43,730 bases of DNA, taken from a virus (taxonomy: Duplodnaviria; Heunggongvirae; Uroviricota; Caudoviricetes). Below are positions 14,641 through 16,625 of the stretch, in pieces. The position numbers and the translations under genes were made by a program. The stretch lies in the IMG/VR virus record IMGVR_UViG_646311924_000020. One strand, written 5' to 3'. The notes under the pieces were generated by a model. That model saw nothing but the letters and a program-made list of their open reading frames with translations, had not been told where the DNA came from and made no database searches. Position 1 is the first letter of the stretch. The number at the start of each line of letters is the position of its first letter.

Positions 14641-15102
14641 TCACGTACTCGGATCATCTTTCTCGATGTAAAACCGATTCCACGTAAACGCGCTTTTGTT
14701 ACCACTACCGCGAGGCATGTCATTTCGCCGCTCAAGTGGTGGTATTTTGGTTAAAGCGATACAGATTGTCTGATATGCACTGTCAGCAGCGGTAAGGAGA
14801 GCGTCTGACGGCTGAATGACGTTATCCATGCACACTTGCACAGCGAGTTTCAAAGCGACGCCATCATTTGCCCATGCAGGGATACCTGAATCATCGTCAG
14901 GTAACGGCATGATGCCGTTTTCTGTATCAGCAAACTGATACCCAAGCTCGATACCTTTAGCCTGCCATGCTGCCATCATGTCTTCGAGGTCATTAATGGC
15001 ATCTTCAATTGCCTGAGGGTCAGCATCTGTCAACGTGGCATTGGAATACAGCCCAGCTTTTCGTAAAGCCTTAAGAACGAGATCACCCTTCGTTTTCGCC
15101 AT
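14641..15102 (-). CDS. head-tail adaptor, P22 gp4-like
   Basis: 153 aa MAKTKGDLVLKALRKAGLYSNATLTDADPQAIEDAINDLEDMMAAW; resembles recalled gp4 and sits between coat and gp10. Confidence 0.6.
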   Translation of the reverse strand: MAKTKGDLVLKALRKAGLYSNATLTDADPQAIEDAINDLEDMMAAWQAKGIELGYQFADTENGIMPLPDDDSGIPAWANDGVALKLAVQVCMDNVIQPSDALLTAADSAYQTICIALTKIPPLERRNDMPRGSGNKSAFTWNRFYIEKDDPST

Positions 15103-15301
15103 CTTCTTCCGCCTTAGCCACTTTTTGCTTCGTTGCGGTTTCTTCAGGGGTTTTTACCCAGCCTTTTTTCAGGTGAGATTTAACTTCTTCGTCATCAACA
15201 ATGATGTAATCGACAGCAAACTGACCACAGGTGATCATGTTGCCCGACTTATAGAGCATTGAACCGCCCCGGGTTTCCTGGAGAGTGTTTTATCTGTGAA
15301 C

Positions 15302-16192
15302 TCAGGCTGCCAGATCATCGTTTCCGATGGAAGCATAATAAGCTTTTTCTGCTTCTGCCGGAGGAGTATGGCCCAGCCTTCCCAGCAATCGTCGATTGTT
15401 ATACCAGTCCACCCACGTTAGTGTGGCCAGTTCCACTTCTGCACGGTTTTTCCAGCTCTTACGGTGTATTACCTCCGCTTTGTAAAGACCATTGATGCTC
15501 TCAGCCATCGCGTTGTCATACGAGTCGCCTGTACTCCCTGTTGATGCCAGTAATCCGGCTTCTTTTAGTCGCTCCGTATAGGCCAGTGACACATACTGAG
15601 AGCCTTTATCGCTGTGATGGATGGTGCCAGACGGACGACGGGCCCACAACGCCTGCTCCAGCGCATCCAGCACGAATGTCGTTTCCATAGACGATGAGAC
15701 CCGCCACCCCACGATGTATCCGGCAAACACATCAATGATAAACGCCACATAGACGAAGCCCTGCCATGTGCTGACGTAAGTAAAATCAGCCACCCACAGC
15801 TGGTCAGGTCGTTCTGCCACGAACTGACGGTTTACGCGGTCGCCTGCGGCAACGGCTTTCCGGCTGATGGTCGTACGGACCTTTTTACCCCGGAGAACAC
15901 CGGCAAGTCCCATAACCGCCATGAGACGTGCCACTGTACATCTGGCCACCCTGATTCCTTCCCGTAACAACTGACGCCAGACTTTACGCACACCGTACAC
16001 CTGATGATTTTCATCGTATACGCGCTGTATCTCTCTCTTCAGCCAGTCGTCGTGCTGCGCACGGGCACTGCGTTTATCCGGATGATGTCGCTGTTGCTGA
16101 CAATGGTAATACGTTGACGGGGCAATATGCAGTTCGCTGCATACCGGTCCGACCCCGTACTGCTCACGCAGCTTATCCAGCAGTGGCATCAT
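15302..16192 (-). CDS. IS629-like transposase OrfB (DDE integrase domain)
   Basis: 296 aa with the IS3-family catalytic region (VADFTYV..., [25 protein letters not shown]). Confidence 0.9.
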
Positions 16193-16515
16193 TTTTTCCA
16201 GAGGCGGTCGAACTCCGCCTTCGCAAAATAAGCGGAAGCCTGGCGAAGGATATCGTTACTGCGGCGCAGTTCACGATTTTCACGTTCCAGCTCTTTCAGA
16301 CGCTGACGTTCAGCGCTGGTGAGCCCACCATCACCGCCCCCGGTATCCCGCTCATGCTGGCGAACCCAGACACGCAGAGTCTCCGGCGTACAGCCAATCT
16401 TTGGGGCAATGGAACAAATTGCCGCCCACTGTGAGTCATATTCATCCTGACTTTCCAGAACCATACGAATCGCCCGCTGACGGACTTCGGGGGAAAAACG
16501 AGTATTTTTAGTCAT
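16189..16515 (-). CDS. IS629-like transposase OrfA (HTH)
   Basis: 108 aa [57 protein letters not shown]...; overlaps OrfB by 4 nt (frameshift-coupled arrangement). Confidence 0.9.
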
Positions 16516-16595
16516 CCTGTTTACCTCTTTCTCAGGGAGTTTAGTCTCCAGGATTTCCGGGGCGGTTCACATTGTTCGTGCCATTGTCTTCTCCC

Positions 16596-16618
16596 AATAA
16601 AAATGGGGCCGAAGCCCC
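16596..16618 (-). terminator. intrinsic terminator after coat gene
   Basis: Minus-strand GGGGC-UUCG-GCCCC hairpin (plus 16605-16618) followed by AUUUUUAUU, immediately after the coat stop codon. Confidence 0.5.
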
Positions 16619-16625
16619 ACCAAAA

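Follow-up and report, generated by a model that had tools for sequence, protein, structure and literature searches.

A complete copy of the insertion sequence (IS) IS629, designated copy A, lies between the coat gene and the gp4-type head-tail adaptor gene in the 43,730-nucleotide stretch of tailed-phage DNA analysed here (Caudoviricetes; IMG/VR record IMGVR_UViG_646311924_000020), the whole of which is referred to below as the window. We hold with high confidence that this copy represents a recent insertion that interrupts the 5' end of a small gene of the P22 orf69 family and that forms part of the decay of the prophage. In this explanation, a functional-looking IS629 entered the late operon for virion assembly in a prophage of Escherichia coli O111:H- strain 11128 that is P22-like and of the CUS-3 type (Lederbergvirus). 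It came to lie after codon 5 and before codon 6 of the P22 orf69 counterpart (phrog_1175) and duplicated the ATG codon of Met5; a second IS629 copy, designated copy B, split the scaffold gene independently. Such a history would amount to neutral prophage decay by IS bombardment and would involve no new mechanism. The insertion is ordinary and strain-specific, lies in a published genome and is of an already known kind.

The decisive evidence for the insertion is the empty site. Copy A is flanked by a duplication of the target triplet CAT (15257–15259 and 16570–16572), and a 3 bp duplication on its own would arise by coincidence in 1 of 64 cases; the insertion is accepted because relatives contain the same site, 100% identical, without the element. 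Once the IS and a single CAT are taken out, the sequence reads ATGGCACGAACAATGCTCTATAAG... and encodes MARTMLYKSGNMITCGQFAVDYIIVDDEEVKSHLKKGWVKTPEETATKQKVAKAEEDGENEG; on the minus strand the reconstruction is GGGAGAAGACA-ATG GCA CGA ACA ATG CTC TAT AAG..., an open reading frame (ORF) of 62 codons. The reconstructed empty site of 688 bp is identical over its whole length in 17 complete E. coli genomes, mostly labelled O111:H8, O111:H2 or O111:NM (the rest have no serotype in the record). About 420 complete E. coli genomes carry it at an identity of at least 95%, and it is also matched in 11 phage records, including CUS-3, Sf101 and Kapi1, at 97.5–98.1%. In IS-free genomes the reconstructed ORF is annotated as a coding sequence (CDS; WP_001444886.1). 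In O111:H8, Sf101 and CUS-3 a CDS of 189 nt occupies exactly its position, and the CDS of O111:H8 strain 05-3004 has a translation identical to the reconstruction. The initial annotation, made from the sequence of the window alone, had derived a roughly 62-codon ORF by removing the IS and one CAT, and had proposed an alignment of the empty site to IS-free relatives; that alignment upholds the ORF. Its counterparts extend from the identical CDS of the O111:H8 prophages, through the near-identical ones of CUS-3, Sf101 and Kapi1, to P22 orf69, which shares its PHROG and its position.

The occupied site, in contrast to the empty one, is confined to a single strain among the genomes searched. Positions 11083–19259 of the window are 100% identical over 8177 nt to AP010960.1, the genome of E. 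coli O111:H- 11128. None of 5426 complete E. coli genomes contained the occupied junction with any of three query designs, strain 11128 evidently being outside that collection. Scans of viral contigs with junction patterns gave no match, and a scan of metagenome contigs gave a single match, which is an unrelated, AT-rich chance similarity. The window is collinear with the prophage of strain 05-3004 at 99.95–100% identity, and the large differences consist solely of IS copies: the window alone has A and B, while two further IS629/IS1203 copies, one in ninH and one in a gene near int (939–2248 and 16112–17421 of the compared stretch), are exclusive to 05-3004. Judged from these comparisons the insertion of copy A is recent, because sister O111:H8 strains hold the exact empty site and both IS copies of the window prophage are 100% identical to each other.

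Copy A occupies positions 15260–16569 on the minus strand. By its sequence it is IS629 itself, not merely an IS629-like element as first described, and it is complete. It is 100% identical over the full 1310 bp to annotated IS629 (AJ304858.2, 'insertion sequence:IS629'; HQ424691.1, 'IS629 transposase orfA'), and the annotated IS629 elements that match it at 100% are located in Shiga toxin (Stx) phages. The termini, TGAACCGCCCCGG...CCGGGGCGGTTCA, are imperfect inverted repeats of the TG...CA type, which agree at 13 of the 13 terminal bases and at about 22 of 25 overall. The left inverted repeat (IRL) is at the 16569 end and the right inverted repeat (IRR) at the 15260 end, and the transposase is read in the direction of the phage late operon. 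Two transposase ORFs overlap at 16189–16192, both on the minus strand: orfA (16189–16515) encodes 108 amino acids with an HTH_Tnp_1 domain (PF01527), and orfB (15302–16192) encodes 296 amino acids with an HTH_21 domain (PF13276) and the rve DDE integrase core (PF00665). An ALIL pseudoknot, the predicted signal for programmed -1 frameshifting in the IS3 family, is found on the same strand at 16118–16234 (Rfam RF01497, 121.5 bits; gathering score, 50). Full-length identity, terminal inverted repeats, the orfA/orfB pair and a 3 bp duplication with an empty site, the marks of an IS3-family insertion, are all present, and the intact coding and signal sequences suggest that copy A is apparently functional. 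The target duplications of IS629 measure 3–4 bp (PMC3271280).

The genes on either side of the insertion are readily recognized. The coat (major capsid) gene (16626–17879, minus strand) is of the CUS-3 type and intact, matches P22_CoatProtein (PF11651) with an E value of 1.3e-76 and is 100% identical to that of the IS-free relative. The gp4-type adaptor gene (14641–15102, minus strand) matches P22_Tail-4 (PF11650; 7e-41) and phrog_637. Directly after the coat stop codon the minus strand contains an intrinsic-terminator-like stem-loop, t_coat, at 16596–16621, with a G+C-rich hairpin (GGGGC-UUCG-GCCCC) and a U-run, the sequence features of a Rho-independent terminator; it was returned by a terminator scan and folds at -14.7 kcal/mol. 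A stem_loop is annotated at the same position in P22, and a 'terminator t coat' in Sf6. The gp4 gene begins 20 nt before the small ORF ends, and a similar overlap occurs in P22 and Sf6. The initial annotation had placed the insertion in the 5' end of a small gene between coat and gp4, with a GGGAG ribosome-binding site (RBS) and a coat terminator just upstream. The limits of the element, the CAT duplication, the identity to IS629 and the flanking Pfam matches agree with that placement, and the terminator was confirmed by scan and fold energy, with its extent now set at 16596–16621.

The protein interrupted by copy A is small, and one may ask whether the 62-codon ORF is a gene at all or whether the IS simply occupies a spacer that separates the coat terminator from gene 4. 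A spacer would accord with the searches for a known relative. Pfam contained no family that matched the protein, a profile search of the PDB gave no sequence relative, a Foldseek search of the PDB with a model of the protein gave nothing with an E value below 7, and a BFVD fold search with the same model returned uncharacterised phage proteins only. A literature search on orf69 and P22 retrieved unrelated ORF69s only, and no paper was found that assigns the protein a function. The AlphaFold2 model itself, built from an alignment of 23 sequences, is a beta-hairpin with a helix at a mean predicted local distance difference test (pLDDT) score of 78.8 and was confident in one of five models. Conservation, however, makes the spacer reading very improbable. 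The 62-residue protein matches phrog_1175 with an E value of 3.6e-28 (residues 2–56 on profile positions 1–55 of 72), and the same profile matches P22 orf69 (NP_059631.1; 4.5e-31) and ORF6 of Ralstonia phage RSK1 (6e-12). The gene invariably follows the coat gene and stands just upstream of the adaptor gene: in the window, in O111:H8, Sf101, CUS-3 and P22, and in the Ralstonia Firingavirus phages RSK1 and Firinga; where a coat stem-loop is annotated the small gene comes next, and it overlaps or abuts the adaptor gene. An exhaustive search yielded 30 clusters at 50% identity. Their alignment defines an N-terminal domain of about 45 residues, (T)MLYKxG..I.CG...LDYIIVD...V...L..GW.KTP, followed by a variable charged tail; G10, G37 and W38 are invariant, and M5, Y7, D21, V25 and P42 are nearly so. 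The ratio of nonsynonymous to synonymous substitution rates (dN/dS) against the commonest alternative allele is approximately 0.2, and the gene has a properly spaced Shine–Dalgarno (SD) sequence. On this sequence evidence the ORF is a real, conserved gene.

Two observations concern the history of this gene family. Compared with the common alternative allele, codons 1–22 are highly diverged, whereas codons 23–55 differ by two synonymous changes only. Because of this contrast between the first 22 codons and the near-identical remainder, a mosaic recombination boundary between the coat-type and gp4 modules is placed by the alignment inside the small gene, around codon 22. In addition, some database proteins join the N-terminal part of the small protein to unrelated sequence: one runs on into the out-of-frame translation of the coat terminator region, and others, from contigs roughly 600 nt long, continue with S30AE or S24 peptidase segments. 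Such fusions are probably rearrangements or chimeric assemblies.

Copy A sits between codons 5 and 6, and the duplicated ATG (CAT on the plus strand) is the native codon of Met5, a residue nearly invariant in the family. The 5' stump (16570–16595, minus strand) retains the SD sequence GGGAG at 16591–16595, with a duplex energy of -7.3 kcal/mol and a spacing of 5–6 nt to the ATG at 16582–16584. It reads MARTM, its last codon (ATG, 16570–16572) being one copy of the target duplication, and is then closed by a TGA formed by IS bases 16567–16569, the first three of the IS end. The 3' fragment (15083–15259, minus strand) consists of 58 codons beginning with the duplicated Met5 codon at 15257–15259 and contains the whole conserved phrog_1175 domain; every conserved residue is kept and only the variable MART is lost. 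The initial annotation is therefore borne out in its reading that the IS separates the RBS and the first four codons from the rest, that the RBS is GGGAG and that the duplicated CAT supplies an ATG to the downstream fragment. What goes beyond it is that the full conserved domain is kept, that the stump is closed by a TGA of the IS and that the more damaging lesion is the copy in the scaffold gene.

In this arrangement the native SD sequence would now drive only the pentapeptide MARTM. The sole SD-like stretch before the 58-codon fragment is the G-rich IS end, GGGGCGG, which ends 2 nt from the ATG, compared with 5 nt in the native gene, and a spacing of 2 nt is suboptimal for initiation in E. 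coli. The small gene is probably strongly down-regulated or silent, although not provably abolished, because the native RBS is lost and the candidate RBS of the IS end is too close to the start codon. Any translational coupling to gp4 would be weakened as well, since gp4 starts 20 nt inside the small ORF. Transcription is a separate matter. Antitermination by Q in lambdoid phages lets late transcription pass terminators, and by analogy late-operon transcription may well continue through the IS, because the element is co-directional with the operon and the prophage has a Q-family gene.

Two points weigh against the interpretation of copy A as a lesion of the small gene. The predicted anti-SD energy of the IS end (-7.2 kcal/mol) is on a par with the -7.3 kcal/mol of the native site, so that some near-full-length translation would be possible; and one annotation pipeline starts the IS-free gene at Met5, in which case, if this is the true start, the IS lies just upstream of the gene and not inside it. 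Both would also fit a functionally silent insertion, in which Met5, the G-rich IS end acting as an SD sequence and read-through from the late promoter or the IS still yield a 58-residue protein. That the conserved domain begins at Met5 and that the IS is co-directional with the operon are in keeping with this possibility, while the 2 nt spacing and the lack of any outward minus-strand promoter at the IS end in a promoter scan count against it; we consider it unlikely. A hybrid outward promoter at the IS end was considered and rejected, as the -35 position for the TATAAG just past the junction reads AAACCC by eye and the scan gave no minus-strand promoter.

A further question is whether the interruption of the small gene was a random hit or whether the position is a preferred target of IS629-type elements. 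A second case at the same junction was found through a database protein in which the translation of an IS end is fused to MLYKPGN.... In JARHRN010000049.1, a contig of an unrelated E. coli draft genome (GCA_038075475.1) whose prophage is 4.5% divergent, an IS629 isoform in the opposite orientation borders on the same ATGCTC junction, with its IRL end there (positions 1–80) and 75 of 77 end bases identical. By comparison of the two junctions, one and the same phosphodiester bond was hit twice independently, because recombination between IS copies cannot swap the IS end that faces a given flank. Another IS629/IS1203 copy, in the sister prophage of O111:H8 strain TW05614, lies about 180 bp away at the 3' end of the coat gene (6264–7574 of the compared stretch). 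Taken together these junctions hint, from a single case at the bond itself, at a local target preference at the orf69 junction. A true hotspot is nevertheless rather doubtful. The second case is the only one, its far junction is missing since the contig ends inside the IS, the site is empty in all of the approximately 420 genomes that carry the locus among the 5426 searched, and the viral and metagenome contig scans gave nothing real. No sequence-specific target has been reported for IS629 (PMC3271280). The combined proposition, that the junction between codons 5 and 6, approximately 30 bp past the coat hairpin, is a true IS629 hotspot and that the gene is still expressed under signals supplied by the IS, is distinctly improbable.

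Copy B (18439–19748) is identical to copy A and inverted, on the plus strand, with a TTT duplication at 18436–18438 and 19749–19751. It splits the scaffold gene after approximately codon 118 into fragments at 17898–18438 and 19749–20104, and once it is removed the scaffold ORF is continuous again and corresponds to the 894 nt CDS of the IS-free relative. A search of the region for repeats returned one pair, the 1310 nt inverted repeats at 15260–16569 and 18439–19748, which are 100% complementary. Two identical inverted copies around 1869 bp that include the coat gene could suggest the ends of one composite transposon carrying this gene, or the product of an inversion between two IS copies. Copy A, however, is bordered by CAT on both sides and copy B by TTT on both sides, the outermost triplets of the pair, CAT and TTT, differ, the inner 1869 bp are 100% identical to and in the same orientation as the IS-free prophage, and separate removal of each IS restores both ORFs. 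A composite element or inversion was therefore rejected as extremely improbable, and two separate insertions are retained as the explanation. As they stand, the inverted copies A and B provide a substrate on which the coat gene segment could be inverted.

The scaffold protein is essential for procapsid assembly in P22. By analogy with P22, the prophage is probably unable to build capsids and defective irrespective of copy A, because copy B splits this essential gene. Together with the copies in the TW05614 and 05-3004 prophages, the comparison of these sequences indicates that the O111-lineage prophage is one that has been struck repeatedly by recent, independent and strain-specific insertions.

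Several other features of the prophage were noted. At the window's left end the prophage adjoins dacD. A gene at 12658–13191 on the minus strand, flanked by the gp10 homologue and by the gene that follows downstream, encodes a 177-residue, homing-endonuclease-like protein with NUMOD4 and HNH_3 domains; the slot after it is that of the P22 tail-needle gene, and in the relative on JARHRN010000049.1 the gp10 homologue abuts a tail-needle-type gene (Phage_tail_NK) with nothing between them. At the head of the late operon (27875–28030, minus strand), genes for tRNA-Thr(TGT) and tRNA-Asn(GTT) follow the gene of the Q-family antiterminator. Beside the tailspike gene (2970–4907, minus strand) is a plus-strand gene at 2021–2929, whose 05-3004 counterpart is annotated as an acyltransferase family protein; by analogy with other P22-like phages it may possibly modify the O antigen and act in serotype conversion.

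For annotation, these results mean that the 58-codon 'hypothetical protein' called in strain 11128 represents a widely conserved head-module gene in truncated form, and that the P22-like prophage of this strain, with two recent IS629 lesions in the orf69-family and scaffold genes, is probably grounded. Beyond annotation the importance of the insertion is small. The family itself (orf69/phrog_1175), whose conserved domain measures some 45 residues and which keeps its place next to gp4 in enterobacterial and Ralstonia phages alike, is a reasonable small target for phage geneticists.

Among known systems, the closest to the interrupted gene is P22 orf69. Both genes belong to the same PHROG, come after the coat gene with its stem-loop, run past the start of gene 4 and share the motif YKxG...(V/I)(I/V)D...GW..P. 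They differ in length (69 residues in P22 and 62 here), with a pairwise identity of approximately 22–25%, and the P22 record assigns orf69 no function. Gene 6 of Sf6 (NP_958182.1; 61 amino acids) occupies the same slot between t_coat and the gp4 homologue and overlaps the next gene, but it belongs to another PHROG (phrog_3251), and its identity of 19% in the alignment comes without significant similarity; on sequence grounds it is a positional analogue and not a demonstrated homologue. IS-mediated inactivation of prophages in enterohaemorrhagic E. coli (EHEC) was reportedly described in 2009 by Ogura et al. for strain 11128 and by Ooka et al. for O157. In the prophage analysed here, sister strains likewise have multiple strain-specific IS629 copies in morphogenesis and other genes (ninH and a site near int in 05-3004, the coat gene in TW05614), and nothing sets this case apart. 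Compared with IS629 of EHEC O157, O111 and O26 prophages, an IS3-family element also named IS1203 and IS3411 in its isoforms, copy A has the same length, ends, orfA/orfB arrangement, ALIL pseudoknot and 3 bp duplication. Its location in a prophage is likewise typical of most IS629 copies, 62% of which sit within prophages in O157 (PMC3271280). The element itself is thus no different from known IS629; only its insertion site sets strain 11128 apart from the other genomes searched.

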